DNA of 64,000 bases, taken from Isurus oxyrinchus. Its lineage: Eukaryota. The notes beneath the pieces were generated by a model. It ran no database searches, was not told the DNA's origin, and saw only the letters and a list, made by a program, of their open reading frames with translations. The DNA is taken from NCBI GenBank assembly GCA_026770705.1, contig JANJGN010000021.1:66092001-66156000 (forward strand), in the 5' to 3' direction. Made by a program: the position numbers and the translations under genes. This document shows positions 25,116 through 59,946 of the stretch, piece by piece (the stretch's first letter is position 1; each line of letters begins with the position of its first letter).

Positions 25116-25185
25116 GTTATTTTATTTTTACCTACCAGTTTGGTTGTTGGAACAGGAAGCAACAATACTGAAGACTTGAGCTCCA

Positions 25186-27676: not shown

Positions 27677-28209
27677 GGGACATTTCCTATGCTAAGTTTT
27701 TTCTAAAAAAATCAGCCTGACCAGCTTGTCCTGCCACTTTCAAAGATCTACATGAGCCCCCAGCTTTGTTTCTGTATCCCCTTTATAATTGAACAGATCT
27801 AATCCTTTCCCTCCTGCCCACAAAAGGATGTAGCAACATTTTTCTCTTTGCTTGTGTCTTTTAGAAATCTACTAAATGTCAACCTGCACTTCTTTTTAAA
27901 CTTCTCAAGTGTCTCTACAATGTCAGCAGCCTCCCAGTTTATCCTGAGCTTCAGCCACACATTCATGGCTGTGACGGCCATTTTGTTTTCACACAATTCA
28001 CTCAGTCTCTCGCCCTCTGGTCGATTTCTCTCATTCTAACTGTTGGCATGTTAATGTCTTGTAGTTCCCAGAAGTTTGAAATAATCACACACTTTTAAAC
28101 TCAAATTCTTCAAACACTTCAATACCTAGGAATTTCACTGTTAGTAGATTTGAATGTCCTTCAACATTAGATGCATTAGACAGAGACAGAGACTGGAGTT
28201 CAAACTTCA

Positions 28210-28215
28210 TTTATT
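28210..28215 (-). terminator. Polyadenylation signal AATAAA
   Basis: tttatt on the + strand, with a GT-rich tract about 20 nt downstream on the sense strand. Confidence 0.55.
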
Positions 28216-28588
28216 GTTGGAATTGAGGAAAATACAAAATTGCAAGTACTGATCAAGTCACCTTTAGCAACCCCCAGCAAAAAATAAATCTGCACATGTT
28301 CTCTGCCCCAGGACAGTCCCCCCACCCCCCTTCTACAATGCTGACTGGGACTGAAGGTCTCGAGAATCAAGCCCCCGCACCCTGTACCAGCAGGCCCTAT
28401 GACATGATTAAGTGCAAGTGGACCTCCAAACACAGTTAGTGCACCTGATAATCTAAGCAGAAACTGAAATCAGGATCACTCCCCAATTGAATCTCTCTCC
28501 TTTCTCTCACAGGTAATTAAAGAGATTTAACTGTTAAAATGCAGCAATGCAATCAAGCCCCCAAAACGAAATCAATGAATCAATCAGT

Positions 28589-29100
28589 GGGCAGACTTTT
28601 CCACTCCCAGCAGCGGCGGCAATCATGGCAGGCGGCAATCGTGGCGGCAAAAGAACATTGTTTCATGACTGTACCTAAAAGTGGCGAGCGAGGCTTCTGC
28701 CTGGACTTTCAGGTCAGTAGAAACTGCTTTCACCTTCCTTTCACACCATCACTGAGAGATATCAGCTGCCTGTCACACATACCGTGCCAAGGCTTGGCAC
28801 AGGGCAGGGGTGAATCCAGGGTATGACTTGGGTTGTGCTGGTAAATCAAGGAGCAAAGTGGGAGAGTTACTGGCTCATTGGAGCCTCTGAAGTCAGGATC
28901 CTGAGAGTCAGGATCCTGCCACAATGAGTATCATCGTGCTCCTCCCGGATGGGTATTTAATGAGCTGACCTGAGCAAGATCTCGCGTGTCCAGCAACACC
29001 CACCCTTCACCCCCGCACTGCCCCACAGCTTTTCAACAGAAGTCATTCCGACTTCAATTCCCGCCACCGGACTCGGTCTCCACAATGGAAAATTCTGCCC
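28589..29100. mobile_element. Non-autonomous TIR element (MITE, PIF/Harbinger-like), 512 bp
   Basis: Left end GGGCAGACTTTTCC, right end reverse complement GGGCAGAATTTTCC (13/14). AGT on both flanks gives a 3-bp TSD. Confidence 0.75.
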
Positions 29101-29370
29101 AGTATCCCAGAGTCTGTGCAGTAAAATCAAATTAATTCAATAACAGAAAGCGCACACATTTCATTACCTATAGAACCCCCCCCGCCCCACCCCCCCTCAG
29201 TTTCAGAGTTACAGATGTCAAGTCACTGCTTCAATGAAAACCCACCCCCCTGATTCTCTCATCAACTCCTCACGCTGACTGTTGACTGAACTCCCTGGAA
29301 CGTCAGCAGGACACGAGAGGCCACTGGGGAAGAGAAACAAAATGCAGTTAGAGTGAGGCACACACTCCAC

Positions 29371-30505: not shown

Positions 30506-30770
30506 AACCTATCAGACATCTTGGTCTCCATAACCCACTGGATCTCAGGGGAAAGAGAACATGAGACCCCAGTGAAAACTTAATTCCTTGAAATATAATT
30601 CAGCAGCTGACTGGAGGCCACATGCAGGTGAGATGCTATAAAATGTGCCCCCCACCACCCCTCCCACACCCAATTACCCATGACATCTCCAGCCTCAGAT
30701 CAACAACTCCAGGAGGCCAGTCTCAAAACTTAGTGTCAAGTTGTATGATCCAGTCTTTAATGCATATAGG

Positions 30771-30797
30771 AAGAGAGAGAAACAGAGACAGAGACAA

Positions 30798-30842
<45 letters not shown>

Positions 30843-30851
30843 GAGAGAGAG
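30771..30851. repeat. (GA)n/(GAGACA)n microsatellite
   Basis: Directly visible. Confidence 0.95.
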
Positions 30852-30977
30852 ATACTGCACTCAGATTCCACACTCAGATTCCACCTCGAGATTGTACAGT
30901 TAACACCAACAGTAAAACTCCAGTTTCAAGGCCAGTGCACAATCTGCTCACACTATTGATCAGTGATGTTCATACCT

Positions 30978-31024
30978 TTAGGCATTGGCGGAGGAAGCTG
31001 ATGAGGAATCCCCTTTATCAGAAG
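30978..31024 (-). CDS. MHC class I exon 7, cytoplasmic (TSDKGDSSSASSANA*)
   Basis: Acceptor ttcttccattaacag|CT, Ser-rich tail ending in Ala, TAA at 30980-30978, then AG|GTATGA donor (exon ends 30976). Confidence 0.88.
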
Positions 31025-34000
31025 CTGTTAATGGAAGAACAAACATTAAAAACTATTTATTGTCAGAGAGCCACAGACAAAGAGAGCCAGAGGCTGTCAC
31101 ATACTAACACAAGAGGATGAAGGTGACACACACATAGGCACATGCACACACACAGTCACACAGACACACACACACTCAGGCAAAGGGAGAGGTCACATGC
31201 TGATGAAGACAGAACAGTAAACTGGTCCCAGTACAGACACAGAATGAGCAAGGTTTCCTGCTCTTTACACAGTTAGATGAAGATCTGGTGTTTTGAGGTA
31301 GACTTACTCTTTGCCGGATTGTAGCCAGTCTTCTGCCCCGCTGTAAAACAAGGAAGTCTCAGTTAGTGACATTCAGAGAGGAAAGAGGTGGAAGATCGAG
31401 ACTATTTTATCTTTCCCAGTCACTTCCCCTGCCTGTCCGGACCACCACTCATAGGAAGATGAGAACATAGTAACAGGATGAGACTATTTATTCATAGAGG
31501 ATGTTTCGACATTCAGTGAGATTATGGCTGATCTGCAATCTCATTCCACTGACCCCCCCTCACCCCCCAACTTTGCCCATATCACTTCATACCTTTGACT
31601 CACAAGATCAATTCAGTTTTAAAATTGACAATGGTCATTTGTGGAAGCAAGTTCCAAATGTCTATCACTCTTTGTATGTAGAAGTGTTTCCTAATTCCAC
31701 TCCTGAAAGATCTGGCTCTAATTTTTGGATGATCCCCCCTAGTCCTAGACTCCCCAGCCACTGAAAATAGATTCACCCTGCTCCCTGTTCTCATTATCTT
31801 GAAAATTTCCATTAAACCACCTCTCCACTTTCTAGATTGCAGAGAATACATTCCCAGTTTGTTTAATCTCTCCTCAAAACTTAACTTGTGCAGTCATCCT
31901 AGTAAATCTACAGTGCACTCCCTCCTTCCTATGGTGAGGGGACCAGACCTGCTCCCATTATTCCAGGTGTGGTCAAACCTGGGCTTTGTAAAGCTGAAAC
32001 ATCACTTCTACCCCCTTGGATTATTTTCCTTCAGATAGAAAAAGCAGCATTCCATTCACCTTTCTGATTATTTTCTCTCCCTGTCCAGGACATTTTCATG
32101 ATCTCTGGGCCTGGATCCCCAAGCATCTTTGAACCTCCACTGTTTCTAGTTTGTCACCATTTATAATCTACCTTTGTAAGGTTTGTAGGTTCGAATTGCT
32201 GACATTGAAATCCTCTCGCTACAGTTTTACTTAATTTATCATTGTCTTTTTAATTTTATACTTCCATCTACATTATAGGCAATGATGCCAATCTTCGTAC
32301 CATCGACAAATTTGGAGATGTGGTTTTCTATCCCATCATCTAAGTCATGACTGAATGGTTGAGACCCAACACAGATCCTTGCAGGGCATAAATAGTCACA
32401 TCCTGCCAATTAGATTATCACCATACACATTATTGCTACTCTGTCTCCTGCCAGTCAGTCAATTTCCTAACCAGTTAAAATAATTTCCCTCCAATTTTGA
32501 GTTTCAGCTTTAGTTAATAACCTCTCATGGGGGACTTCATCAAATGCTTTCTCAAAGTCCATATAAATAAAATCCATAGACATTCCCCTGGCCACCACTT
32601 TAATCACCTCTTCAAAAAAGTTCACTCAAGTTAACTTGACATGAGCTATCTCTTTACAAAACCATGTGGCTCTCTCTGACCAACATAAGTCACCCCATTG
32701 TTAATCATAGATGGTCATCATTTCCTCACAACGCATAATGGGTCCGTATTTCTCTGGTTTCCCCCACTCAACTTTCTTAAACAGCGTAGAGAGAGGTGTA
32801 ATTTTTTAATCTGAAGGAATGGATACCCAACTGATAATTTTGGAGATTATTGTTCCAGCACGTGCAATGCTCCTGGGGTTTTGTCACCATTTAGTGTTAT
32901 TAATTTCTCCAATACCGTGACATTGCTTCTGTGAATTTTGATGATTCCGTGTCTCTGATACTATAATAGTTCACTGACATACTGACCATTTCCTCTACTA
33001 TAAATATTGACACCATATAATCATTCAGCACCTACACCTTCTTATTTCCATTAACAATATCACAATTATCAGTTTTCTAAAGGCCCACAATGTTTCTGAA
33101 CACACTCCTTTTCCCTAATGTAACTATCGAGGTTTTGTGTGTTGATTTTGATATTCCATGCAAATTTCTTCACAGGTTTATTTTTGTAGCTCTCACTACC
33201 TGCTTTCTCAATCTTTGTTGTTCTTTGTACCTTTCCATTTAGCAGGATCTATGCAATTTTTGCATTTTGTAAGTTATTTCTTTCAGTTTTACTGTTCTCT
33301 CTTCAATTGTCCACGGTTAGCTTTTTATGCAAGTACAGCTCTTGTCCTTTGGGTGTCTAAATTGGTTTTGTATTATATGAGATTCCTTTTTCAACACCTC
33401 CTCCTGACATTGTGTGAACTTACCATTAAGAGATTTGCCCAGTTTACTGTGGACAATCCATTCAAGTCAGTCTTACCAAATCGAGAATCTTAGCTGGTTC
33501 ATGTTTCTCGCTTTCAGAATTACATGAACCCAATCCTAGAATGACCATTACTGGATAAACATTCAAACACTGTTAGGGTGCTAATTTAATCTGTTCTAGG
33601 ATATATGTTGTGTTAGAAAACTAGCCAGAAACATTCAAGAAATTCACTACCTTCTGACATGTGCTTATCCCAATCTCTCTGGAAGTTAAAATCTCTCATT
33701 AAACCATCCTGCCTTTGCTACATACATACTGCCTAATCGCAGCATTTATACACATCCCAGCTTCACAGCTGCTACCAATGTGCCAACTCCCACTAAAGTC
33801 TTAATCCTTTTCTGTTTCTTAATTTAACCCATAATATCTCCACTGTCTGCCCACCTATCGTTATATCTCCTCTTATCATTGAAGGGATTTCATCCGTAAT
33901 CATTAAGGCTACACCACCCTCTCTACGTTTTCCTGATCCTATTTCTGAGTATATTTAGTTCCTGGTCCTAAAGGTCGAGCAGCCACATCTACCATGTCAA

Positions 34001-37000
34001 ACCCTCCAAAGTGAATTATGTTTGCAATTCGTACAATGACTACTTTGTGTTTGTATAAAGCATACTTATTTGGGCCTGACAGCATAACTGGTCCATCCAC
34101 CCACACTTCACTCACACATTTACTGAATCACTCTCCCAATTTAATTATTTGACGTCTTGAAGTTTCCCCACAATTTGTAGTTCCTAAAGTTCAACCCCAA
34201 CCCCCGCTCCCTCACCCAACTCCACCACCTCATCCCACTGGGCCCCAACATTGACACTCTCTTGCACCCAGTGCCACCCTATGCCCACTACATCTTATAT
34301 CTCTGTAATCCACACTAGTTCCCCAATCCGTCCCACACTTCCAGCACCAAGAGTCCCTTCCCCCAGCGTGTACTTGCCATTTTCTCCACAATTCCTACCT
34401 TTCTTTTTGTAGAAGACGAAAGCCACAATGGCGAGAGCGATGAGCAGAACAGCAATCACAACACCAACAATAATAGGGATCATGGAGTCAGCCTTTGGTT
34501 CTGAAAGACAGAGTGAATGGGAAAGTCACATACCAGAGATCAGACACAAAACAGGAGGATTCACTAAACAATGTGGCACTGTAGTTTCCCAGGATACACT
34601 GAGCCCAATCCCACAGTAATATCCCAGGATACAGTGAGCCCACTCACACTGTAATATCCCGAACACACTGAGACCATTCACACAGCTCAGCACTGACCCT
34701 CTCGCCTGTAGAGAGAGAGACTGGATCCTCACACAGCTCAGCACTGACTCTCTCTCTCTCTTGTACAGAGAGAGACTGGATCCTCACACAGCTCAGCACT
34801 GACCCTCCCTCTTGTACAGAGAGAGACTGGATCCTCACACAGCTCAGCACTGACCCGCTCTCCTGTGCAGAGACTGGATCCTCACACAGCTCAGCACTGA
34901 CCCTCCCTCTTGTACAGAGAGAGACTGGATCCTCACACAGCTCAGCACTGACCCGCTCTCCTGTACAGAGAGAGACTGGATCCTCACACAGCTCAGCACT
35001 GACCCGCTCTCCTGTAGAGAGAGACTGGATCCTCACACAACTCAGCACTGACCCGCTCTCCTGTACAGAGAGAGACTGGATCCTCACACAGCTCAGCACT
35101 GACCCTCTCTCCTGTACAGAGAGAGACTGGATCCTCACACAGTTCAGCACTGACACTCTCTCCTGTAGAGAGACTGGATCCTCACACAGCTCAGTACTGA
35201 CCCTCTCTCCTGTACAGAGCTAGACTGGATCCTCACACAGCTCAGCACTGACCCTCTCTCCTGTACAGAGACTGGATTCTCACACAGTCAGCACTGACCC
35301 TCTCTCCTGTAGAGAGAGAGACAGGATTCTCATACAGCTCAGCACTGACCCGCTCTTCTGTAGAGAGACTAGATCCTCCACAGCTCCGTATTGACCTTCT
35401 CTCCTGTACAGAGAGAGAAGGTTTCTCAAATAGCTCAGCACTGACCCTCTCTCCTGTACCAAGAGAGACTAGATCCTCATACAGCTCAGCACTGACCATC
35501 TCTCCCGTAGAGAGAGAGGCCTAATTCATACACAGCTTAGCACTGACCCTCTCTCCTGTACAGAGACTGGATCCTCACACAGCTCAGCACTGACCATCTC
35601 TCCTGTACAGAGACTGGAGTCTCACACAGCTCAGCACTGACCCTCTCTCCTGTACAGAGACTGGATTCTCACACAGCTCAGCACTGACCCTCTCTCCTGT
35701 ACAGAGACTGGATCCTCACACAGCTCTGCACTGACCCGCTCTCCTGTAGAGAGACTGGATCCTCACACAGCTCAGCACTGACCCTCTCTCCTGTAGAGAG
35801 AGAGACTGGATCCTCACACAGCTCAGCACTGACCCTCTCTCTTGTACAGAGAGAGACTGGATCCTCACACAGCTCAGCACTGACCCCCCCCCTCTTGTAT
35901 AGAGAGAGACTGGATCCTCACACAGCTCAGCACTGACCCTCTCTCCTGTAGTGAGACTGGATCCTCACACAAATCAGCACTGACCCTCTCTCCTGTAGAG
36001 ACTGGATCCTCACACAGCTCAGCACTGACTCTCTCTCCTGTACAGAGAGAGACAGGATTCTCACACAGCTCAGCACTGACCCGCTCTCCTGTAGAGAGAG
36101 AGACTGGATCCTCACACAGCTCAGCACTGACTCTCTCTCCTGTACAGAGAGAGACAGGATTCTCACACAGCTCAGCACTGACCCGCTCTCCTGTAGAGAG
36201 AGAGACTGGATCCTCACACAGCTCAGCACTGACTCTCTCTCCTGTACAGAGAGAGACAGGATTCTCACACAGCTCAGCACTGACCCGCTCTCCTGTACAG
36301 AGACTGGATCCTCACACAGCTCAGCACTGACCCTCTCTCCTGTAGTGAGACTGGATCCTCACAAAATGGTGGATAATCTTACCATAAAACACGACCATCT
36401 TCCTGTTCAGCACACCCTGATCCACCACACAGGAGAACTTGGCCTGATCCTTCGGGTCAAAGTCCATTAAATTTTGGATCTGGTAAGTGCCATCATGGTT
36501 GGGCCGGGCTCCAGTGGAATGAATCTCCTCGACCTTGGACCCATCTCTCTGCATTTCCACCTTTATGGCCTGAGGGTAGAACCCAGTGGCAACACAGGAG
36601 AGCTTGTTACTGTTCCCCAGACGGGTTAAGGACACGGCTGGAGCAACTGAGAGAGGAGAGAAAGTATTAATACAGGAACAAAGACAAACCTCAGAACCAT
36701 GACACGCTCACTTGCCAACTCCATCTCTCCGCCTCACCCACCCACTCACTGGCTCTCACTGTGGCTCCACTCCTCCCTCACTCTCAAACCCCCTCATCCC
36801 TCATTCCCCTTCACTCACCCCCATCCCCTTCATCCCCTCCATTCCTCTTCACTCCCCCTCCTCCCACTTCAGTCCCCTTCACCCCATCCCTTCTCCACCC
36901 ATTCGCATCCCCCTCTCCCCACCTTCTCTCCCCCAGCCCCCTCTCCTCTCGCCCACCTCCCCTCTCCTCTCTTCCCCATCCCCATCTCCCCATCCCCTCT

Positions 37001-46000: not shown

Positions 46001-49000
46001 GCCCCTGTAAATAAACCCTGAGACAACACAAATAACACAGAGCCCCTGTAAATAAACCCCGAGACAACACAACACAACACAGAGACCCTGTAAATAAACC
46101 CTGAGACAACACAACACAACAGAGCCCCTGTAAATAAACCCTGAGACAACACAACACAACACAGAGCCTCTGTAAATAAACCCTGAGACAACACAACACA
46201 ACACAGAGCCCCTGTAAATAAACCCCGAGACAACACAACACAATACACAGCCCCTGTAAATAAACCCCGAGACAACACAACACAGAGCCCCTGTAAATAT
46301 ACCGTGAGACAACACAACATAACACAGAGCCCCTGTAAATAAACCCTGAGACAACACAACACAACACAGAGCCCCTGTAAATAAACCCTGAGACAACACA
46401 ACACAGAGCCCCTGTAAATAAACCCTGAGACAACACAACACAACACAGAGCCTCTGTAAATAAACCCTGAGACAACACAACACAACACAGAGCCCGTGTA
46501 AATAAACCCTGAGACAACACAACACAACACAGAGCCTCTGTAAATAAACCCTGAGACAACACAACACAACACAGAGCCCGTGTAAATAAACCCCGAGACA
46601 ACACAACACAATACACAGCCCCTGTAAATAAACCCCGAGACAACACAACATAACACAGAGCCCCTGTAAATAAACCCTGAGACAACATAACACAACACAG
46701 AGCCCCTGTAAATATACCCTGAGACAACACAACATAACACAGAGCCCCAGTAAATAAACCCTGAGACAACATAACACAGTGCCCCTGTAAATAAACCCTG
46801 AGACAACACAACACAACACAGAGCCCCTGTAAATAAACCCTGAGACAACACAACACAGAGCCTCTGTAAATAAACCCTGAGACAACACAACACAACACAG
46901 AGCCCCTGTAAATAAACCCTGAGACAACACAACACAACACAGAGCCTCTGTAAATAAACCCTGAGACAACACAACACAACACTGAGCCCCTGTAAATAAA
47001 TCCTGAGACAACATAACACAACACAGAGCCCCTGTAAATAAACCCTGAGACAACACAACACAGAGCCCCTGTAAATAAACCCTGAGACAACACAACACAA
47101 CACAGAGCCCCTGTAAATAAACCTTGAGACAACACAACATAACACAGAGCCCCTGTAAATAAACCCTGAGACAACACAACACAACACAGAGCACCTGTAA
47201 ATAAACCCCGAGACAACGCAACACAACACTGAGCCCCTGTAAATAAACCCTGAGACAACACAACACAGAGCCCCTGTAAATAAACCCCGAGACAACACAA
47301 CACAACAGAGCCCCTGTAAATAAATCCTGAGACAACATAACACAACACAGAGCCTCTGTAAATAAACCCCGAGACAACACAACACAACACAGAGCCCCTG
47401 TAAATAAATCCTGAGACAACATAACACAACACAGAGCCCCTGTAAATAAACCCTGAGACAACACAACACAGAGCCCCTGTAAATAAACCCCGAGACAACA
47501 CAACACAACACAGAGCCCCTGTAAATAAATCCTGAGACAACATAACACAACACAGAGCCTCTGTAAATAAACCCCGAGACAACACAACACAACACAGAGC
47601 CCCTGTAAATAAATCCTGAGACAACATAACACAACACAGAGCCCCTGTAAATAAACCCTGAGACAACACAACACAGAGCCCCTGTAAATAAACCCTGAGA
47701 CAACACAACACAGAGCCTCTGTAAATAAACCCCGAGACAACATAACACACTGAGCCCTTATAAATAAACCCTGAGACAACACAACACAACACACAGCCCC
47801 TGTAAATAAACCCCGAGACAACACAACACAGAGCCCCTGTAAATAAACCCCGAGACAACACAACACAACACAGAGCCCCGGTAAATAAACCCCGAGACAA
47901 CACAACACAACACAGAGCCCCTGTAAATAAACCTTGAGACAACACAACACAACACAGAGCCCCTGTAAATAAACCCCGAGACAACACAACACAACACAGA
48001 GCCCCTGTAAATAAACCCTGAGACAACACAACAGAGCCCCTTTAAATAAACCCCGAGACAACATAACACGGAGTCGCTGTAAATGAACCCCGAGACAACA
48101 TAACACAACAGTGCCCTTGTAAATAAACACCAAATTACAACCCAGGCACTGACTTGGATTTGAGGGGGTATCTGCTTCATTCTTGACCTCAGTTGCACCA
48201 AGTTGAGAGATTGAGGTTCAGGAAGTGGAGCGTGTGACTTACAGTCGGCAGGATTGGGGAATCGATTGGAGACGGTGAAAGACGGAGCATGGTGTCTGGT
48301 CCTGACTAACAGGCACCATGAATAAATAAAGCAAATTACTGTGAATGCTGAAAATCTGAAATAAAAGCTTAAAATACTGGAAAAGCTCAGCAGGTCTGGC
48401 AGCATCTGTGGAGAGAGAAACAGAGTTAACATTTCAAGTCCATATGACTTATTTTCTGAGAAGAAAAATCACATGGACTCAAAACATTAACTCTGTTTCT
48501 CTCACCACAGATGCTGCAAGACCTGCTGAGTTTTTCTAGCATTTTCTGTTTTTATTTTAGTTCCAATGTATTTTCTATCCCAGGGATGTCAGAGTTAGAC
48601 TACGAGAAGGATAGTCACACTGGTCACCAAGACACATGGAATAGCGGAGACGGAACAGAAAGTTTAGGGTTATAGTGAGTGACTAACATTGGGTTTCGGG
48701 AACCTACAAGAATCTCTTGTTAGGGACAGAATGACTGAGCACGTGAGTTAATGTGTGTTGGTCAGAGAGAGAGAGGGAGAGAGAGAAGAGAGAGTCATCG
48801 ATTTGTCTGATCCTCTTCCTGGCACAGTCTGAGATTAAACCAGTCAGTTTGCAAACCTAGGCCCCATTCCACAAACCTGATTCAGGAGAGCCTGCCCTGG
48901 GTGTTCAAATTTTAGTTCCGGGGTTCGGGTGGGTGGGGATTGCTCGGGGGGTAGGGTGTTGACTTTGTCCCAGCTATAAATGGACAGCAAAACAAAAAAA

Positions 49001-52000
49001 ATCCCTTCGGCCGTCACACTCCCTCATTCCCCCAACACACTCCCCATGTCACATCCATGGCAACTGAAGACACCCAATGTCCTCTATAGCCTCTATACCA
49101 ATCTATTCCCCTCTAACCAACCAATGGCCCCCCTATAGTCTCTATGCCAACCTATTCCCCTCTAACCAACCAATGGCACCCTATAGCCCCTATGCCTATC
49201 TACCCACCCCAAGGCCCTTTATAGCTGCTATGCAAATGTAGTGCCAACTCATACCAACCCATGCTCCCAACTACACTTCTCCCTTACATCCTCCATGCCA
49301 ACTCACCATGAGCAGACTTAAGGACACATGCTGAGACGAAATAAAGTTCTTAGTTTTTATTGCAGACTTTACTTTTATAAAAACACCATCATTCATAAAA
49401 GCGCATTCAATTCATAATCCTTTATAAAAACATACATTTCATTTTGGTGCTTGTTCCCTTATAAAAGCAAGCATTTGTATTCATAGCCCCTCATCAAAGA
49501 CTTTATAAACACTTGCAGCTGTAAATCAACTGTCAACTGATAGGCACCCCACTGTGATAATGATAGGCTGTGCAACCAGTCATGCAGCACAAATCATATA
49601 AGAGAAGCCACAGGTTTAAGTCAGAGTGAAATAGCAAGCGCTGTTTTTTTTATACTGGTGGATGCTTTTTCTTTAAAGTTAAAGGCCAGGAGAGTTATAT
49701 CCCTTCACCGCTTGATAGTTCCAATGAGTTTATCCACTTTTTATGCACATTCATGTCAATTTTTAACAACCCCAAATGACACCTGACCTCTCCCAAAGGT
49801 GTCCCTGGACCTATCCAAAAAGGTACCTTACCTCACCAAAAGGGTATCCTATCTCTCCAAAGGTCTTCGGCAGTTTCAGACATTCTCCCAAAGGTCTCCA
49901 GCCCACAAGTTGTGTTTTAGACATCCCACTAATGAAAATTGGCTCTGTATGGAGGCAGTTGCACTTTTACATGTGCAGCTACCTCTGTGAACCACAGATT
50001 TGCAAAAAGGAACCCAGCCCTGTTCCCATGTCAAAAATGATCTCTGGCACCATGTTGACTAAGATGGAGATCATCTCAGTCTTTATGAAAATTTGGGCCT
50101 TGGTGTCTTATGTGACCCTGAGATGAGCTTCTGATCACATATTTGCATCATCACTAAGACCTCCTATTTCCGCTTCTGTAACATTGCCCAACTTCACCAC
50201 TGCTCAGCTCATCTGCCACTGAAACCCTCATTCATACCTTCCTTACCTTTGGACTTGAATATTCCAACACACTCCTGGCTCATATCCCACTTTCCATCCT
50301 CTGTAAACTTCAGGTGATTCAGAACTCTGCTGCCCACATCTTATCTTGCACCATCTCATTCCCTCTCACTCCCTGTGCTCACTGACCTACACTGGCTCCC
50401 ACTAAAGCAACATTTTCATTTTAAAATTCTCATTCTTCTTTTCCAGCTTCTCCATGGCCTTGGCCTTCCCCATCTCAGTAATCACCTCCAGCTCCACAAC
50501 CCTCTGACATCTCTGAACTCCTCTAATCCTGGCCTCTTGAACATCTCTGATTTCATTGCTCCACTATTGGTGGCTGTGTCTTCAGCTAACTAGACCCCAA
50601 GCTCTGGAATACCCTTCCTTAACCTCTCCACCTCTTTACCTCGCTCTCCCCCTTTAAGACGAACGGTGCCATATTTTGTTTCATAATGTTCCTGTGAAGC
50701 ATCTTGGGACATTTCGTTGAGTTAAAGGTGCTACATAAATATAAGTTGTTGTTGGTAAAGTTAACCTGACTAATCTCATTGAATATTTTGAGCAGGTCAC
50801 GAACATGGAATATTAAGGAGTGTCTGTGGATGTTACTTCTATGGGTTTCCAGAAGGCTTTCGATAAGGTTCCACACAAGAGACTGTTAGGAAAAATGAGA
50901 GTGAATAGAAATGGAGAGGGTCAACTGACTTGGGTTTGAAATTTTTTTGGGAGGTAGGAGACAGAGATTGGGGTTAAAGGGGTAAGTACTTTGATTGGTT
51001 GGATTTGACTAGTGGATTCCAGGGTTCTGTACTGAGGCCTCAACTGTTCACCACATTTATAAGTGAATCTGTGAAGGAATAGAGAGTTGTGCATCTAATT
51101 TGTGGATGACATAAAGTTGGGAGGATCAGTAAGTTGTGTCGATGGGGGCAGGAAGTTACAAAGGGACATTAACTGATGAAGGAGTGAGTAAAACTGTAAC
51201 AGATAGAGTTTAATGTGGGAAAGTGTGAACTCACCCACTGTGGAGCTAAAAAAGATCAAACAGAATATTTCCTAAATGGTGAGAAACTGGGAACTGTGGA
51301 TGAAACATAGAAACATAGAAACTAGGAGCAGGAGTAGGCCATTCGGCCCCTCGAGCCTGCTCCACCATTTATTATGATCATAACTGATCATCCAACTCAA
51401 TAGCCTGCTCCTGCTTTCTCCCCAAACCCTTTGATCCCTTTTGCCCCAAGAGCTATATCTAACTCCTTCTTGAAAACATGCAATATCTTGGTCTCAACTA
51501 CTTTCTGTGGTAGCGAATTCCACAGGCTCACCACTCTCTGGGTGAAGAAACTTCTCCTCATGTCAGTCCTAAACGGTCTGCTCCATATCCTCAGACTGTG
51601 ACCCTTGGTTCTGGACTCCCCCACTATCGGGAACATCCTTCCTGCATCTAACCTGTCTAGCCCTGTTAGAATTTTTTAGGTTTCTAAAATCCCCCTCATT
51701 CTTCTGAACTCCAGCGAATATAATCCTAAGCGACTCAATCTCTCCTCATATGTCGGTCCCGCCATCCCAGGAATTAGTCAGGTAAACTATATAGCAAGTA
51801 CATCTTTCCTCAGATAGGGAGACACAATATTCCAGGTGTGGTCTCACCAAGGCTCTGTACAATTGCAGCAAGGCATCCCTGTGCCTGTACTCGAATCCTC
51901 TGGCTATGAAGGCCAACACACCATTTGCCTTAACAAAAACAAAAACAGAATTACCTGGAAAAACTCAGCAGGTCTGGCAGCATCGGCGGAGAAGAAAAGA

Positions 52001-55000
52001 GTTGACGTTTCGAGTCCTCATGACCCTTCGACAGAACTTGAGTTCGAGTCCAAGACTTGGACTGGAAAAGTGGTGGTGAAATGGAATTAAGATATAGATC
52101 AGCTGTGATCTAATTGAATGGTGGAACAGACTGAAGGGGCTGAATAGCCTCATTCTCTTCCCATGGTTCACACTTCTCTCTGTTTCATTCCCCTCTTTCA
52201 CACTGTTTCACTCCTCTTTCTCTCACTGTTTCACTCATCTCTTTCTCTTGTTTCGCACCTCTCTCTCTTTTGCTCCTCTCTCTTTCGCTCTTTGTTTTGC
52301 TCCTCTTTCACTCGTTAAACTTCACTTCCCTATCTGGCTGATTCTGTTTCACTCCTCCCTCCCTCTCCCCCGCTTCGCTCCTCTCTCTCCCTCCCTCTCC
52401 CCCGCTTCGCTCCTCTCTCTCCCTCCCTCTCCTCCGCTTCGCTCCTCTCTCTCCCTCCCTCTCCCCCGCTTCGCTCCTCTCTCTCCCTCCCTCTCCCCCG
52501 CTTCGCTCCTCTCTCTCCCTCCCTCTCCTCCGCTTCGCTCCTCTCTCTCCCTCCCTCTCCCCCGCTTCGCTCCTCTCTCTCCCTCCCTCTCCCCCGCTTC
52601 GCTCCTCTCTCTCCCTCCCTCTCCTCCGCTTCGCTCCTCTCTCTCCCTCCCTCTCCTCCGCTTCGCTCCTCTCTCTCCCTCCCTCTCCCCCGCTTCGCTC
52701 CTCTCTCTCCCTCCCTCTCCCCCGCTTCGCTCCTCTCTCTCCCTCCCTCTCCCCCGCTTCGCTCCTCTCTCTCCCTCCCTCTCCCCCGCTTCGCTCCTCT
52801 CTCTCCCTCCCTCTCCCCCGCTTCGCTCCTCTCTCTCCCTCCCTCTCCCCCGCTTCGCTCCTCTCTCTCCCTCCCTCTCCCCCGCTTCGCTCCTCTCTCT
52901 CCCTCCCTCTCCCCCGCTTCGCTCCTCTCTCTCCCTCCCTCTCCTCCGCTTCGCTCCTCTCTCTCCCTCCCTCTCCCCCGCTTCGCTCCTCTCTCTCGCT
53001 CCCTCTCCTCCGCTTCGCTCCTCTCTCTCCCTCCCTCTCCCCCGCTTCGCTCCTCTCTCTCCCTCCCTCTCCTCCGCTTCGCTCCTCTCTCTCCCTCCCT
53101 CTCCCCCGCTTCGCTCCTTTCTCCGTTTCATTCTCCTCTCTCTCTCTCTGTTTCATTCTCCTCTCTCCGTTTCACTCTCCTCTCTCTGTTTCACTCTCCT
53201 CTCTCTCTCTCTCCCTGTTTCACTCTCCTCTCTCTCTCCCTGTTTCACTCTCCTCTCTCTCTCTCCCTGTTTCACTCTCCTCTCTCTCTCTCCCTGTTTC
53301 ACTCTCCTCTCTCTCTCTCCCTGTTTCACTCTCCTCTCTCTCTCTCCCTGTTTCACTCTCCTCTCTCTCTCTCTCCCCCTGTTTCACTCTCCTCTCTCTC
53401 TCTCCCTGTTTCACTCTCCTCTCTCTCCCTGTTTCACTCTCCTCTCTCTCCGTTTCACTCTCCTCTCTCTCCCTGTTTCACTCTCCTCTCTCTCCGTTTC
53501 ACTCTCTTCTCTCTCCCTGTTTCACTCTCCTCTCTCTCCATTTCTCTCCCCTCTCCCTCTCTCCCTGTTTCACTCTCTCTCTCTCCCTGTTTCACTCTCC
53601 TCTCTCTCTCTCTCCCTATTTCACTCTCCTCTCTCTCTCTCCCTGTTTCACTCTCCTCTCTCTCTCCGTTTCACTCTCCTCTCTCCCTGTTTCACTCTCC
53701 TCTCTCTCTCCGTTTCACTTTCCTTTCTAGCTGTTTCACTCTCCTCTCTCTCTCCGTTTCACTCTCCTCTCTCTCTCTCCGTTCCACTCTCCTCTCTCTC
53801 TCTCCCTGTTTCACTCTCCTCTCTCTCTCTCCCTGTTTCACTCTCCTCTCTCTCTCTCTCCGTTTCACTCTCCTCTCTCTCCCTCTGTTTCACTCTCCTC
53901 TCTCTCTCTCCCTCCCTGTTTCACTCTCCTCTCTCTCTCTCTCCCTTCCTGTTTCATTCTCCTCTCTCTCTCCCTCCGTTTCACTCTCCTCTCTCTCCCT
54001 CCCTGTTTCACTCTCCTCTCTCTCTCTCCCTGTTTCACTCTCCTCTCGCTCCGTTTCACTCTCCTCTCTTTCCCTGTTTCACTCTCCTCTCTCTCCCTCC
54101 GTTTCACTCTCCTCTCTCTCCCTCCCTGTTTCACTCTCCTCTCTCTCTCCCTGTTTCACTCTCCTCTCTCTCTCCCTGTTTCACTCTCCTCTCTCTCTCC
54201 CTGTTTCATTCTCCTCTCTCTCTCTCTCCCTGTTTCACTCTCCTCTCTCTCTCTCTCCCTGTTTCACTCTCCTCTCTCTCTCCCTGTTTCACTCTCCTCT
54301 CTCCGTTTCACTCTCCTCTCTCTCTCCGTTTCACTCTTCTCTCTCTCTCCCTGTTTCACTCTCCTCTCTCTCTCCCTCTGTTTCACTCTCCTCTCTCTCT
54401 CCGTGTTTCACTCTCCTCTCTCTCCCTGTTTCACTCTCCTCTCTCTCTAGCTGTTTCACTCTCCTCTCTCTCTCCCTCTGTTTCACTCTCCTCTCTCTCT
54501 CCGTGTTTCACTCTCCTCTCTCTCCCTGTTTCACTCTCCTCTCTCTGTTTTACTCTCCTCTCTCTCTCTCCCTGTTTTACTCTCCTCTCTCTCTCTCCCT
54601 GTTTCACTCTCCTCTCNNNNNNNNNNNNNNNNNNNNNNNNNNNNNNNNNNNNNNNNNNNNNNNNNNNNNNNNNNNNNNNNNNNNNNNNNNNNNNNNNNNN
54701 NNNNNNNNNNNNNNNNNNNNNNNNNNNNNNNNNNNNNNNNNNNNNNNNNNNNNNNNNNNNNTCTCTCTCTCCGTTTCACTCTCCTCTCTCTCTCCCTCTG
54801 TTTCACTCTCCTCTCTCTCTCCCCCTCCCTGTTTCACTCTCCTCTCTCTCTCCCTCCGTTTCACTGTCCACTCTCTCCCTCCCTGTTTCACTCTCTCCTC
54901 TCTCTCTCCCTGTTTCACTCTCCTCTCTCTCTCCCTGTTTCACTCTCCTCTCTCTCTCTCCCTGTTTCACTCTCCTCTCTGTCTCTCTCTCCCTGTTTCA

Positions 55001-58000
55001 CTCTCCTCTCTGTCTCTCTCTCTCTCCCTGTTTCACTCTCCTCTCTCTCTCTCCGTTTCACTCTCCTCTCTCTCTCTCCGTTTCACTCTCCTCTCTCTCT
55101 CCCTCTGTTTCACTCTCCTCTCTCTCTCCCCCTCCCTGTTTCACTCTCCTCTCTCTCTCCCTCCGTTTCACTGTCCACTCTCTCCCTCCCTGTTTCACTC
55201 TCTCCTCTCTCTCTCCCTGTTTCACTCTCCCCTCTCTCTCTCTCCCTGTTTCACTCTCCTCTCTCTCTCCCTGTTTCACTCTCCTCTCTGTCTCTCTCTC
55301 CCTGTTTCACTCTCCTCTCTGTCTCTCTCTCTCTCCCTGTTTCACTCTCCTCTCTCTCTCTCCGTTTCACTGTCCTCTCTCTCTCCCTGTTTCACTCTCC
55401 TCTCTCTCTCCCTGATTCACTCTCCTCTCTCCCTGTTTCACTCTCCTCTCTCTCTCCCTGTTTCACTCTCCTCTCTCTCTCCCTGTTTCACTCTCCTCTC
55501 TCTCTCCCTCCCTGTTTCACTCTCCTCTCTCTCCCTCCCTGTTTCACTCTCCTCTCTCTCTCTCCCTGTTTCACTCTCCTCTCTGTCTCTCTCTCTCCCT
55601 GTTTCACTCTCCTCTCTGTCTCTCTCTCTCCCTGTTTCACTCTCCTCTCTGTCTCTCTCTCCCTGTTTCACTCTCCTCTGTCTCTCTCTCTCCCTGTTTC
55701 ACTCTCCTCTCTCTCTCTCCGTTTCACTCTCCTCTCTCTCTCTCCGTTTCACTCTCCTCTCTCTCCCTGTTTCACTCTCCTCTCTCTCTCCCTGATTCAC
55801 TCTCCTCTCTCCCTGTTTCACTCTCCTCTCTCTCTCCCTGTTTCACTCTCCCTCTCTCCGTTTCACTCTCCTCTCTCTCTCCCTCCCTGTTTCACTCTCC
55901 TCTCTCTCCCTCCCTGTTTCACTCTCCTCTCTCTCTCTCCATTTCACTCTCCTCTCTCTCTCTCCGTTTCACTCTCCTCTCTCTCCCCCTGTTTCACTCT
56001 CCTCTCTCTCTCTCCCTGTTTCACTCTCTTCTCTCTCTCTCCCTGTTTCACTCTCCTCTCTCTCTCTCTCCGTTTCACTCTCCTCTCTCTCTCTCTCTCT
56101 CCGTTTCACTCTCCTCTCTCTCTCTCCGTTTCACTCTCCCCTCTCTCTCTCTCCCCCTATTTCACTCTCCTCTCTCTCTCCGTTTCCCTCTCTTCTCTTT
56201 CCCTCTCTCTGATTCACAGCACTCTTTCTCCCTCAATCTGATTCATTTCTTCTTTCTCTCTCTGATGCACTCCCCTCTGTCTCTCTCTTTCTCTCTGATC
56301 ATTTCCAGGAACTCAGCTGCCTGACAGATTTAAACATTCCCTATATATTCTGCCTGGTAACAGTGACATCAAGCTAACACAAATTCTCATTGGCAAATTC
56401 CACTCAGGTCTCCCAACCCCATTAATCCCCATGGAAACTCCCTGTCACTGACTTGTCAGACTGTCTCTTAGCAACAGGGGAGCAGTGGGGGGACGGGTGG
56501 AGTAGGATCCTGACTGGGAGTGTGGGGAGGGGGGACACGGTAATGGGGTAATGGGAGTGAGGAGAGGGCAAAGGGCGATGGGGTAATGGGAATGAGGGGA
56601 GAGAGGACACAGGGCGATGGGGTAATGGGAGTGTGGGGAGAGGGGACACAGAGTGATGGTGTAATGTATCCCACATTCTACCCTCTGTAAACCTCAGATC
56701 ATCCAAAACCCACAGCCTGTGTCTGAACTCACACGAAGTCCTGTTCGACTATCACCTCTATTCTTGCTCACATACATTGCCTCCTGGTGAAGCAACATCT
56801 CAATTTTAAAATGTTCATCTTTCTCTTCAAATCCCTCTGTGGTCTCACCCCTCCCTATCTCTGTCATTTCCTCCACCCTCACAACCCTCCAAGGTATCCC
56901 CACTCCTCTAACGTTGGTCTCCTGAGTATTTCTGGTTTTAACGCTCTGCCATTGTTAGCCATTTCTTCAGGTGCCTAGGCCCCACCCTCTGGAATTCCTT
57001 CCTACATCCCTCCACCTCACCTTCCTCCTTTAAGACACTCCTTAAAATCTACCTCTTTGATCAAGCATTTGGTCATCTGGCCATAATATCTCCTTATGTA
57101 GCTCCTGTGAATGACATTGGGATGTTTTATTATATTAAAGGTGCTATATCAATCCGAATTGTTGTAATCTTTACACAATTTTTTATTGGCAGAGACAAAC
57201 ACCCACCTCCCACCCCAACAACCACAGTGTAAATTTACCCCTATTCATAGGATCACAAGTAAATCCCCAATTCATGCCCACCGCCTGAACACAACGAAAC
57301 ACTCGATTAACATACACTTAACAGAAAGGGTTTAATCGATTAGATATGGAGAAAACACTCCCTCTGGTGAGAGAGACAAGAACAAGGGACAACATCTTAA
57401 AATTCAACTGGGCCATTCAGGAGGGAGATCAGGAAATGGTTTCTCACATAAAGCATAGTGGGAATCTAGAACGTTCTCTCCATAAAGCTGTGGATATGGG
57501 GTGGTTGAAATTGAAGCTTTCAAAATGGACAGACTTTTACAAAAACAAAATACTGCAGATATTAGAAATGTGAAATAAGAGAAAATGCTGGAAATCCTCA
57601 GCAGGTTTGGCAGCTTCTAAAGAGTGAGAGACAGAGTTACAGTTTCAGCTCGATGATGTTTGATCAGAATGGCACCTCTGTTTCTCTCTGCATAAACAGC
57701 TCCTTGTAGTGTCACAGGCTCACAGCTGGGGAATGAGGTACAGATCGGTCAGGAGCTATTTAGTTGGTGAAAGAAGATCGAGAGTCTCCTCTCACTGTGT
57801 CTCTCTCTCTGATCCCACTCTCCAGTCTCGTCACTTTAAACCCCAGTCCCCAGCACCATTTCTCTATCACTCTCTAGCCCCACAGCTCTAACCCTGAGGC
57901 CCCACATTCTCTCTCCAGCCCCACACCCCTAACCCCCAGGCCCTGCACCCTCTCTCCAGCCCCACATCCCTAAACATCAGGCCCTGCAACCTCTCTCCAG

Positions 58001-59583
58001 CCCCACATCCATAAACATCAGGTCCTGCAACCTCTCTCCAGCCCCACACCCCTAACCCTCAAACCCCGCACTCTCTCTCCAGCTCCACACCCCTAACCCT
58101 CAGGCCCCGCACTCTCTCTCCAGCTCCACACCCCTAACCCTCAGGCCCCGCACTCTCTCTCCAGTCCCATACCCCTAACCCTCAGGCCCCGCACTCTCTC
58201 TGCAGCCTCATACCCCTAACCTTCAGGCCCCGCACTCTCTCTCCAGCCCCACACCCCTAACCCTTAGGCCCCACACTCTCTCTCCAGTCCCATGCCCCTA
58301 ACCCTCAGATCCTGCACTCTCTCTCCAGCCCCATACGCCTAAACCTCAGACCCCACACTCTCTAGCCCCATACCCCTAACCCTCAGACCCCACACTCTCT
58401 CTCTAGCCCCATACCCCTAACCCTCAAGCCCCGCACTCTCTCTCAGCCCCATACGCCTAACCCTCAGGCCCCCAAAATCTCTCTCCACCCCCATGCCCCT
58501 AACCCTCAGGCCCCGCACTCTCTCTCCAGCCCCACACCCCTAACCTTCAGGCCCCGCACTCTCTCTCCAGTCCCATACCCCTAACCCTCAGGACCCACAC
58601 TCTCTCTCCAGCCCCACACCCCTAACCCTCAGACCCCACACTCTCTCCAGCCCCACACCCCTAACCCTCAGACCCCAGACTCTCTCTCCAGCCCTACACC
58701 CCAAATCCATAGCCCTGCACCCTCTCTCCAGCCTCATACCCCTAACCCTCAAGCCCCGCACTCTCTCTCAGCCCCATACGCCTAACCCTCAGGCCCCCAA
58801 AATCTCTCTCCAGCCCCATGCCCCTAACCCTCAGGCCCCGCACTCTCTCTCCAGCCCCACACCCCTAACCCTCAGACCCCACACTCTCTCTCCAGTCCCA
58901 TACCCCTAACCCTCAGGCCCCGCACTCTCTCTATAACCCCACACCCCTAACCCTCAGACCCCACACTCTCTCTCCAGCCTCATACCCCTAACCCTCAGAC
59001 CCCACACTCTCTCTCCAGCCTCAATACCCCTAACCCTCAGACCCCACTCTCTCTCCAGCCCCACACCCCTAACCCTCAGGCCCCACACTCTCTCTCCAGC
59101 CCCACACCCCTAACCCTCAGGACCCACACTCTCTCCCCAGCCCCATGCCCCTAACCCTCAGGCCCCGCACTCTCTCTCCAGCCCCATACGCCTAAACCTC
59201 AGACTCCAAAAGCATTTCTCACGCTTCAGCTCAGGATCCCTGACCCTCAGTCTAATTTCCCCACCACCACCATTCTGCTCGTGATTCTCTCTCTCTCTGC
59301 CCCTCCTCAGGTCCAGTACCCAGCACTGAGACCCTCTCTGACCCCATTACCCACTGACTGAGGGTTAATACCCCAGTACCAGATACTGAGACCCTCTCTG
59401 ACCCCGTTACCCACTGACTGAGGGTTAATACCCCAGTACCAGATACTGAGACCCTCTCTGACACCATTACCCACTGACTGAGGGTTAATACCTCAGTACC
59501 AGACATTGAGACCCTCTCTGACCCCATTACTCACCTGCAGAGACCCCTCCACACAGAAGGGTCAGTAGTATTAACCTCAACAT
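30978..59583 (-). CDS. UAA: MHC class I alpha (heavy) chain, classical-type, 7 coding exons, 344 aa
   Basis: Exons of 49+267+273+264+102+33+47 nt = 1035 nt join in frame via GT-AG phase-1 introns: leader, alpha1, alpha2, alpha3 (Ig-C1), TM, two cytoplasmic exons, TAA. Anchors Y7, Y59, R84, T143, K146, W147, Y159, Y171 present. The symbol follows shark classical class I naming and is an inference. Confidence 0.93.
31308..31340 (-). CDS. MHC class I exon 6, cytoplasmic (AGQKTGYNPAK)
   Basis: Acceptor ttgttttacag|CG, donor A|GTAAGT, 33 nt, with the conserved cytoplasmic YxxA motif. Confidence 0.88.
31480..34060 (-). mobile_element. Old CR1-type LINE remnant filling intron 5
   Basis: ORF2 C-terminus ESRTRGDH...RKHFYIQRVIDIWNLLP (31600-31851), decayed RT, and an endonuclease-like GGVAL segment near 33915. 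Many stops. Confidence 0.75.
34399..34500 (-). CDS. MHC class I exon 5, connecting peptide and transmembrane helix (EPKADSMIPIIVGVVIAVLLIALAIVAFVFYKKK)
   Basis: Acceptor tgtctttcag|AA, donor G|GTAGGA, 102 nt. Hydrophobic stretch followed by a KKK stop-transfer. Confidence 0.94.
34678..36363. repeat. Intron 4 minisatellite, 44-50-bp unit (CACAGCTCAGCACTGACCCTCTCTCCTGTACAGAGAGAGACTGGATCCTCA)
   Basis: About 35 copies, most with GGATCC. Begins about 20 nt from the exon 4 donor. Confidence 0.97.
36383..36646 (-). CDS. MHC class I exon 4, alpha3 Ig-C1 domain
   Basis: Acceptor ctctctcag|TT, donor G|GTAAGA, 264 nt. LSCVATGFYP, RPNHDGTYQ, FSCVV. Confidence 0.96.
36770..40985. repeat. Intron 3 polypyrimidine/polypurine low-complexity tract (CCCCCAT/CTCTCT), about 4.2 kb
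   Basis: Almost only C/T on the + strand, running up to the exon 3 donor. Confidence 0.97.
40987..41259 (-). CDS. MHC class I exon 3, alpha2 domain (GIHTLQVMYGC...TKNKW...YLEQTCIEWLRKYL)
   Basis: Acceptor tttgacag|GG, donor G|GTGAGA, 273 nt. Both disulfide cysteines, DGKD, TKxKW, Y159, W167 and Y171 present. Confidence 0.97.
41290..41865. repeat. Intron 2 GC/CpG-rich repeat (CCCCGA/CCCCGG/CCCGGA)n
   Basis: Fills most of the 657-bp intron between alpha1 and alpha2. Confidence 0.97.
41917..42183 (-). CDS. MHC class I exon 2, alpha1 domain (GSHSLRYHY...EYW...RTNQTENG)
   Basis: Acceptor ctctgttccag|GA, donor G|GTGAGT, 267 nt. Motifs GSHSLRY, PEF..VGYVD, YDS, P..RW, YW and the N86-type glycosylation site NQT. 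Confidence 0.97.
42526..48130. repeat. Intron 1 minisatellite, 32/37/42-bp unit GAGA(CAACA)nCAGAGCCCCTGTAAATAAACCCY
   Basis: About 140 copies with a variable internal pentamer. Gives the spurious Cys/Val/Leu ORFs on the minus strand. Confidence 0.98.
48325..48560. mobile_element. Palindromic Penelope-like element (same family as 27453-27676)
   Basis: ctcagcaggtctggcagcatctgtggagagagaaacagagttaac and its inverted arm. Confidence 0.7.
49080..49200. repeat. ~49-bp tandem duplication (about 2.4 copies)
   Basis: ctatag...ctattcccctctaaccaaccaatgg recurs at 49084 and 49133, with a partial copy at 49181. Confidence 0.8.
50095..50753 (+). mobile_element. L2 LINE 3' fragment
   Basis: LTDLHWLP...FKILIL...LHGL ORF2 C-terminus; tail aaaggtgctacataaatataagttgttgttg. 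Confidence 0.8.
50753..51300 (+). mobile_element. CR1 RT fragment
   Basis: Decayed LTNLIE, FQKAFDKVPHKRLL and GSVL motifs. Confidence 0.75.
51303..51930 (-). mobile_element. CR1 3' fragment with (GAAACATA)n tail
   Basis: ORF 51397-51636 ESRTKGHSL...FFTQRVVSLWNSLP and an octamer tail at about 51302-51320. Confidence 0.85.
51933..52050. mobile_element. Penelope-like terminal-repeat half element
   Basis: ctggaaaaactcagcaggtctggcagcatc...gagttgacgtttcgagtc. Confidence 0.65.
52360..53118. repeat. Homogeneous 32-bp minisatellite (CGCTTCGCTCCTCTCTCTCCCTCCCTCTCCYC)
   Basis: About 23 near-identical copies. Confidence 0.97.
53120..56200. repeat. (GTTTCACTCTCC(TC)n CCT) minisatellite, spanning the assembly gap
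   Basis: About 20-30-bp units with a variable TC run. Confidence 0.97.
54617..54761. other. Assembly gap (145 N)
   Basis: N run inside the repeat, so the true intron 1 length is uncertain. Confidence 1.
56685..57165 (+). mobile_element. L2 LINE 3' fragment
   Basis: KQHLNFKMFIFLFKSLCGLTPPYL; tail aaaggtgctatat...ttgttgt. Confidence 0.75.
57325..57690 (+). mobile_element. CR1 fragment followed by a degenerate Penelope-like arm (about 57543-57690)
   Basis: MEKTLPLVRETRTRDN; aaatgctggaaatcctcagcaggtttggcagc. Confidence 0.6.
57885..59205. repeat. 41-bp minisatellite containing CCCTAACCCTCA
   Basis: Unit CCCCACACCCCTAACCCTCAGGCCCCGCACTCTCTCTCCAG, about 32 copies. Confidence 0.95.
59313..59534. 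repeat. 60-bp tandem repeat (about 3.7 copies) starting at the exon 1 donor
   Basis: Lines 59341, 59401 and 59461 align in exact 60-bp register. Confidence 0.95.
59535..59583 (-). CDS. MHC class I exon 1, signal peptide MLRLILLTLLCGGVSA
   Basis: ATG at 59583, 16 codons with a hydrophobic core plus 1 nt, then donor G|GTGAGT. Phase matches exon 2 (G+GA = Gly1 of GSHSLRY). Lies directly downstream of the SXY promoter. Not in the ORF track. Confidence 0.9.
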
Positions 59584-59704
59584 TTTCCTGAATGAATTAT
59601 TTGAGAGTAATCCTATATCCAGTGATAATCCTGTTCCACCTGCACTCCACCTCTTTGTGTCTCTCTGGATCCTGGTCTCTATGCACTTCACCCAGGGCTG
59701 ACTG

Positions 59705-59818
59705 TATTAAACTTCGGTGCCTCCACGCTGATTGGTTCAATGGGACACTAATGTCCAATTATAATATAAACAGCCTGTGAGCCATCAGTCTCTGGGTAGA
59801 AGGTTCCTGGGTAGGTTG
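59705..59818 (-). promoter_or_regulatory. MHC SXY enhanceosome module plus proximal CCAAT and TATA-like box
   Basis: Sense strand: CAACCT (S, 59818-59813), 16 bp, CCCAGAGACTGATG (X1, 59796-59783) overlapping TGGCTCA (X2-like), 20 bp, ATAATTGG (Y, 59762-59755), 19 bp, CCAATCAGCGT (59735), then TTTAATA (59711-59705). Confidence 0.8.
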
Positions 59819-59935
59819 TGTTCCTTTCAAAATAAACTTTTCCGATATAGTGAACTATCCAATCACAGAAATACTGTGAAGAACATCATCAGTTACCAGG
59901 GAGAATAAACTTTACAAGGTTTGAGAATTAAATTA

Positions 59936-59946
59936 GAAACTGAAAG
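59936..59946. promoter_or_regulatory. ISRE / IRF element
   Basis: GAAACTGAAAG fits GAAANNGAAA, about 120 bp upstream of the S box, on the side expected for a class I promoter. Confidence 0.6.

Follow-up and report, generated by a model that had tools for sequence, protein, structure and literature searches.

A likely classical MHC class I gene of the UAA type, intact among tandem repeats, in a lamniform shark

Introduction

Class I exons lie scattered among repeats along a 64,000-nucleotide stretch of Isurus oxyrinchus DNA (the window), and they raise the question of whether they belong to a single working gene and, if so, whether that gene is the classical, peptide-presenting class Ia gene of the animal or one of its relatives. 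Shark classical class I genes have been known since the 1990s. The gene described here is of a known type, a new but unremarkable addition to this familiar family.

Results

Structure of the gene and its surroundings

Seven coding exons on the minus strand, from 59583 to 30976, join into a stop-free frame of 344 aa that ends in TAA (Table 1), and all six introns of this coding join are GT-AG and in phase 1. In gene order the introns measure 17351, 657, 4340, 1882, 3058 and 283 bp, the leader, exon 6 and exon 7 are just 49, 33 and 49 bp, and each class I exon is present once in the window. The initial annotation had described seven exons with canonical splice sites, a leader exon 17 kb away from exon 2 and a locus hidden among repeats, and all of this was confirmed, with ∼59% of the ∼31.4-kb gene span being tandem repeat. 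The 17-kb length of intron 1 is a minimum-style estimate because of the assembly gap within it, which is flanked on both sides by an identical 27-mer array.

The stop codon is followed 2 nt on by a strong donor; from this, an acceptor at 29323 and an AATAAA that is the sole one between 27500 and 31000 we infer that the gene likely has a non-coding eighth exon. A weaker acceptor near 30757, after an AG/TC repeat, is a possible alternative start for this exon.

Table 1. Features of the class I gene and its predicted promoter, in window coordinates.
Feature	Position	Strand	Remarks
ISRE-like element TTTCAGTTTC (candidate)	59936..59945	-	two occurrences of the pattern on the minus strand, window-wide
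Distal S-X-Y-like module (candidate)	59856..59922	-	S-like AACCT; X box from 59900; ATTGG at 59863
Proximal S-X-Y-like module (candidate)	59752..59818	-	X box from 59796; ATTGG at 59759
Exon 1, coding part (16-aa leader)	59535..59583	-	leader identical at 16/16 residues to white shark (P0031) and Mustelus (P0044)
Intron 1	42184..59534	-	17,351 bp, ∼63% tandem arrays; 145-N gap at 54617-54761
Exon 2 (alpha1 domain, 89 aa, polymorphic)	41917..42183	-	end two residues longer than in other sharks
Exon 3 (alpha2 domain)	40987..41259	-	junction with exon 2 in contigs of 3/4 runs
Exon 4 (alpha3 Ig C1 domain, short shark UAA type)	36383..36646	-	
Exon 5 (connecting peptide and transmembrane helix)	34399..34500	-	
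Exon 6 (cytoplasmic; YXXA tyrosine motif, YNPA)	31308..31340	-	motif described in PMC4950430
Exon 7 (serine-rich tail and stop codon)	30976..31024	-	donor 2 nt past stop
Likely exon 8 (3' untranslated)	28190..29323	-	AATAAA at 28215-28210; splice and polyadenylation signals

Tandem repeats make up two thirds of the window. Positions 1-24136 consist of a CpG-rich satellite (19-bp unit, >1,260 copies, 65% GC) that runs off the window start and lies 4 kb downstream of the gene, with 26/39-bp arrays following it to 24485. Every intron but 5 and 6 has its own tandem array adjoining an exon: a 60-bp repeat (59313-59534, 3.7 copies, 93% alike) starts at the exon 1 donor, and a 41-bp array just inside intron 1 (57870-59202) carries 26 copies of TTAGGG on the gene's strand. 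Decayed LINE-like fragments occur at 25180-26600, 31600-32700, 51300-51960, 60600-61030 and 62000-63650; RVT_1 matches were obtained at 25349-25977 and 32470-32625, and the other LINE-like fragments were judged by eye from their translations.

According to PMC10751288, elasmobranchs carry a single class Ia gene close to TAP and PSMB8/9, and the Ia-like genes in its vicinity sit among zinc-finger genes. The supplement of that paper lists the white shark 'MHC Ia UAA (partial)' (LOC121291208) as a 33.4-kb gene between psmb8 and TAP2, with TAP2 beginning 31 kb past UAA, as well as two 'MHC-Ia (partial)' entries for catshark. The gene span here thus compares as ∼31.4 kb with 33.4 kb in white shark, and the window extends 28 kb beyond the gene, i.e. 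short of the 31-kb UAA-TAP2 distance. A Pfam scan of the 135 window frames of ≥52 aa outside tandem arrays detected no TAP, PSMB or zinc-finger gene; besides the class I exons it matched only three reverse-transcriptase fragments and sequence of low complexity. No second class I exon or pseudo-exon was found in the window by tblastn with 10 class I proteins or by blastn with the coding sequence, and Rfam gave no match in 24000-64000. Nested in the white shark UAA locus is an unnamed 2,288-bp model (LOC121291545, chr19 65807154-65809441; PMC10751288 supplement). Its length is close to that of the alpha3-to-transmembrane stretch here (2,248 bp), and this model may be a split-off half of white shark UAA.

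Domains and anchor residues

The translated frame has the complete build of a class I heavy chain (leader, alpha1, alpha2, Ig C1 alpha3, transmembrane helix and tail, with one phase-1 exon each). Pfam matched MHC_I to exons 2 and 3 (E 4e-26 and 2e-25) and C1-set to exon 4 (E 2e-14), values far outside what chance would give. The best solved-structure match for both groove domains was 6LUP, which PMC8236899 identifies as nurse shark UAA.

The eight residues that contact the peptide termini, namely Y7, Y59, R84, T143, K146, W147, Y159 and Y171 in HLA numbering (mature positions 7, 57, 82, 141, 144, 145, 158 and 170), are all present. Position 123 is L, likewise in several other sharks, and position 63 is N in the window and Q in some run variants; PMC8236899 names Y7, Y59, D/E/Q63, Y159 and Y171 for the peptide N-terminus. 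The eight residues had initially been read as the mark of a classical molecule; their presence was borne out, but they do not single out classical genes, because by-eye reading of the supplement sequences of PMC10751288 finds all eight in nurse shark UDA and UAA-2, and they are also complete in a nurse shark record named non-classical (P0079). Four anchors are replaced in the UBA sequences of the same supplement, also read by eye (F59, I143, R146 and F159). The anchors would exclude UBA, UCA, UFA and UGA, but not UDA, UAA-2 or UAA-NC; judged on sequence, they are necessary and insufficient for classical status, which rests here on polymorphism and splicing.

Unusual residues are H8, V59 (HLA 61), two extra residues at the alpha1 end and a Q replacing the H of the alpha3 CxVxH motif. 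Because H8 and the two extra residues were seen in contigs of several runs and the alpha3 Q is common to basking shark, we regard these three features as traits of the lineage and not as decay. A pseudogene reading was rejected in view of the open frame, the intact splice sites and the spliced contigs described below.

Relatives and phylogeny

Protein searches retained 21 of 37 candidates as matches for alpha1, 37 of 50 for alpha2 and 2 of 4 for alpha3 (the last for 70-224 aa only). The nearest relatives by sequence are lamniform (mackerel-shark) records: white shark XP_041068227, a 196-aa partial protein (leader, alpha1 and alpha2) with an identical leader and 74% identity over alpha1-alpha2, and basking shark XP_078393299, 117 aa long, which begins at an internal Met in alpha3 and is identical at 104/117 positions over alpha3-tail. 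On the basis of the matching 'partial' label and the chromosome size, XP_041068227 is probably the product of LOC121291208. No full-length lamniform class I record was present among the matches of the alpha1, alpha2 and alpha3 searches; the suggestion that automated annotation could split or mis-model such genes was thus upheld, the nearest white shark and basking shark records being fragments. At full length the best matches were Triakis scyllium class I proteins, with 63-68% of the complete chain identical; the figure for nurse shark Gici-UAA*01 (6LUP, AAF66110) was 61%. The Triakis set comprised 29 listed of 34 members in three clusters, some of which may belong to a second locus; we take AAB97318-AAB97353 to be the Trsc-UAA/UBA loci, with alleles named UAA.

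Among the other records, Mobula and Pristis proteins of 573-747 aa (P0025-P0030) have repeated class I domains and are either fused gene models or real multi-domain proteins. Horn shark, bamboo shark and Mustelus proteins (P0032, P0036 and P0038) combine a very divergent alpha1 with an ordinary UAA-type alpha2, and this alpha1 may possibly represent an old alpha1 lineage.

In a maximum likelihood tree of 41 ectodomains, which left out most Triakis sequences and most non-shark matches, the gene was sister to white shark XP_041068227 (support 100/99) and lay outside both the UBA-like clade (100/100) and the UAA-2-like clade (100/100), these clade labels having been assigned by likeness to the supplement sequences of PMC10751288. 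The pair fell within a weak group (86/83) together with Triakis, nurse, bamboo and horn shark sequences, deeper nodes were weak (81-86), and a 165-row FastTree agreed with the 41-row tree. UCA, UDA, UFA and UGA are missing from the tree because there were no proteins under those names among the protein-search matches. Phylogeny, proposed at the outset as a check, gave a divided answer: the placement beside white shark and outside the two labelled clades stood, but a grouping of this pair with the UBA-like clade survived an AU test (p=0.133), so that the tree alone does not settle the lineage. The kept anchors and the position outside the UBA-like clade in the tree speak against membership of elasmobranch UBA, a multicopy clade marked by the loss of anchors 59, 143, 146 and 159.

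Splicing of exon 2 to exon 3

Six sequencing runs of one organism contain 15-33% of the words of exons 2-3 and their intron, and contigs of four of them (X1-X4) were aligned to 41870-42520. None of the runs is recorded as RNA; they were taken as RNA by guess only, X1 being probably DNA, and the contigs carry no expression level, strand or tissue. In the four runs contig depth was 200-28,000 across 41916-42181 but only 0-12 in the intron on the 5' side, and there was no coverage of the intron on the 3' side. The loose ends at 41916 in X2, X3 and X4 consist of the first bases of exon 3, i.e. they cross the exon 2-3 splice, and the exon 3 starts read by hand in these ends carry changes at HLA 95 (F, V) and HLA 99 (C). 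Exon 2 is therefore spliced to exon 3 in transcripts, which covers one of the six coding junctions in runs that are RNA by guess. On the leader side the contigs continue past 42181 by 31, 90 and 123 letters and the intron beyond the masked repeat is uncovered; no letters of the leader-exon 2 junction appear in the contigs because the masked repeat hides those extensions. Spliced reads over the predicted junctions had been named as a check in the initial annotation, and the exon 2-3 junction is the one observed, in 3/4 runs.

Polymorphism of alpha1

The contigs of the four runs contain seven distinct alpha1-helix variants between 41916 and 42057, the window's own (record 1 of X1) included; differences close to contig ends are outside these variant lists. 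X1 matches the window's own variant exactly over 41916-42147. Among the 27 contig pieces listed (there are 24 further), no run had more than two major variants, and in X2, X3 and X4 the two had near-equal depth. All eight reconstructed variant segments remain open. An X1 variant at 41956 has an alpha1-helix end so divergent that its last 54 letters are unaligned, and the part of it that is visible encodes the X3 motif.

Within alpha1, 21 codons are changed and all 21 changes are non-synonymous. They fall at mature positions 23, 32-34, 38, 39, 42, 43, 60, 61, 64-68, 71, 74 and 77-80, which we take to be groove floor, pocket B and alpha1 helix. Of these codons, 17/21 lie among the 27/86 positions that vary in the 29 Triakis sequences (hypergeometric P=7e-8; 15/21 and P=3e-6 with a stricter cut for variable Triakis positions). 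A count per site is weaker: 22/24 substitutions are non-synonymous, short of significance given that 21% of sites are synonymous (p=0.09). The proposed check for polymorphism thus came out in favour of a classical gene, provided that the sequence variants are read as alleles of one locus. Runs X2 and X4 have different variants under a single sample code, which means either that animals were pooled under one label or that more than one locus is represented. UDA genes form a distinct lineage and have low polymorphism. The variation seen here and a by-eye comparison with the PMC10751288 supplement sequences argue against membership of elasmobranch UDA.

The floor motif of D33 with D42/V43 is found in two of the runs, in 3/29 Triakis sequences, in white shark and in Mustelus. 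Over residues 61-75, two of the helix variants differ by a single residue from a Triakis sequence and by two from the closest variant of their own species; the remaining five lie at least as close to a variant of their own species as to Triakis. This sharing of D33/D42/V43 and of helix motifs fits either old allelic motifs or convergence, which short protein segments cannot separate. For shark class II, old lineages have already been described (PMC8010645). A literature search on lamniform class I polymorphism and on elasmobranch trans-species class I, which left most subscription journals outside, returned nothing on topic by title.

Predicted promoter

The consensus sequences used here for the ISRE and the S, X and Y boxes are those that we presume to be standard. 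Upstream of exon 1 they pick out a candidate ISRE-like element followed by two candidate S-X-Y-like modules, the proximal one 104 bp downstream of the distal and with identical spacing, and then a CCAAT at 59735. The two modules align gap-free with AACCT, the X-box core and ATTGG in common and differing spacers (35/81 columns identical). Gaps within the modules are ∼15-16 bp (S-X) and 20 bp (X-Y), fitting the 16 bp and 20-22 bp given in PMC4374748. The two modules are the sole sites of the exact gapped core, and 0/100 shuffles reach two, for a pattern drawn post hoc from both sites; with one mismatch allowed, 19/100 shuffles reach two and the promoter pattern is not significant. SXY together with ISRE is the class I promoter in PMC7573153, PMC7922096 and PMC7281430. 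A literature search with most subscription journals outside it found no paper describing X and Y boxes in the promoter of a shark MHC gene.

Discussion

We consider it highly probable that this intact locus is a classical gene, the class Ia UAA of a lamniform shark. The initial proposal of a cartilaginous-fish UAA-type classical gene is supported by the alpha1 variation, the exon 2-3 splice and the closest relatives. It has to be weighed against the reading that the gene is an expressed class Ia-like paralog of the nurse shark UAA-NC/UAA-2 kind near the true classical gene, in which case the protein would bind peptides still but be oligomorphic and the variants would come from several loci. 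Ia-like genes do lie near the Ia gene in elasmobranchs (section 5 of PMC10751288) and genes of this kind keep all eight anchors, but the window holds no zinc-finger gene and no second class I exon, and the gene is sister to the probable white shark UAA, even though the AU test (p=0.133) leaves room for a grouping with the UBA-like clade. The difference between X2 and X4 despite one sample code would also suit several loci, as would the resemblance of the D33/D42 variant to Triakis sequences and to the nurse shark non-classical record; however, no run has more than two major variants among the pieces listed, these are at near-equal depth in X2, X3 and X4, and 7/7 helix variants are different, where fixed paralogs would be expected to reappear across runs. 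We regard a paralog as unlikely.

Less probable still, and in our judgement very improbable, is a chimeric model, in which leader and promoter come from a neighbouring class I copy with the gap hiding sequence, or else a decaying allele. The 145-N gap and the absence of the leader junction letters from the contigs speak for the former, but the same 27-mer array stands on both sides of the gap, there is no other leader in the window, the gene span agrees with that of white shark UAA (supplement of PMC10751288), and the contigs extend 31, 90 and 123 letters past 42181 without covering intron beyond the masked repeat. As to decay, the unusual H8, V59 and alpha3-motif Q are to be set against the lack of any stop or frameshift and the exact match to the window's alpha1 in X1.

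As the classical UAA gene, the locus would probably be the main one by which the animal displays viral and tumour peptides to killer T cells. In line with what is known of class I genes elsewhere, constitutive and interferon-induced transcription would come from the S-X-Y modules and ISRE via NLRC5/RFX/CREB/NF-Y and IRF1, the leader would direct the chain into the ER, and the heavy chain would pair with beta-2-microglobulin. TAP would deliver cytosolic peptides to the closed groove, to be shown to CD8 T cells, with Y7, Y59, Y159 and Y171 predicted to hold the peptide N-terminus and R84, T143, K146 and W147 the C-terminus. Differences at the variable floor and helix positions would give each allele pocket preferences of its own, with balancing selection acting on them, and the YXXA motif of exon 6 (described in PMC4950430) would control endocytosis.

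More tentatively, groove variants may have persisted across shark orders while a doubled S-X-Y module plus ISRE drives the gene, a design for which the papers searched gave no shark description; we think this combined proposal possible but lean against it. Were both SXY modules working, or the shared motifs inherited and not convergent, this would bear on the origin of class I regulation and of allelic lineages in the earliest jawed vertebrates. The practical value of the locus is that it supplies a full gene model, predicted promoter included, where the nearest public records from the order are incomplete; its strong groove polymorphism would make it an immune-diversity marker for these sharks.

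Compared with known systems, the gene shares its leader, its short alpha3 without the C-strand Trp and the build of its transmembrane region and tail with Triakis class I and Gici-UAA*01, as well as the variable alpha1 positions with Triakis, and it differs from them in the two extra alpha1-end residues, H8, the Q of alpha3 CxVxH and L123. White shark XP_041068227 and basking shark XP_078393299 are fragments, whereas the window gives the whole chain. In the sequences of supplement 10 of PMC10751288, the elasmobranch UBA, UAA-2, UDA, UCA, UFA and UGA have the class I fold in common with it. There, UBA has a short alpha3 as here but F59, I143, R146 and F159; UAA-2 has the eight anchors but a long alpha3; UDA has the eight anchors but an alpha1 identical at only ∼37/88 positions (hand count) and a Trp-bearing alpha3; and UCA, UFA and UGA, read by eye, are without most anchors, unlike the gene here. 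The list of class Ib families follows PMC12562908.

Mammalian class I has Y84 where the gene here has R84; this gene has two SXY-like modules and is ∼10x longer through its tandem arrays. Exon 8 of HLA-B is wholly non-coding, as exon 8 here is likely to be. H2-K and HLA-A/B likewise have an exon per domain, separate tail exons and the exon 6 YXXA (PMC4950430), and mammalian class I has the SXY plus ISRE promoter (PMC4374748) whose elements are here predicted from sequence. In trout UBA the long intron is intron 2, whereas here it is intron 1, and because intron 2 is short here, alpha1-alpha2 shuffling of the trout kind is less expected (PMC6523485, for trout).
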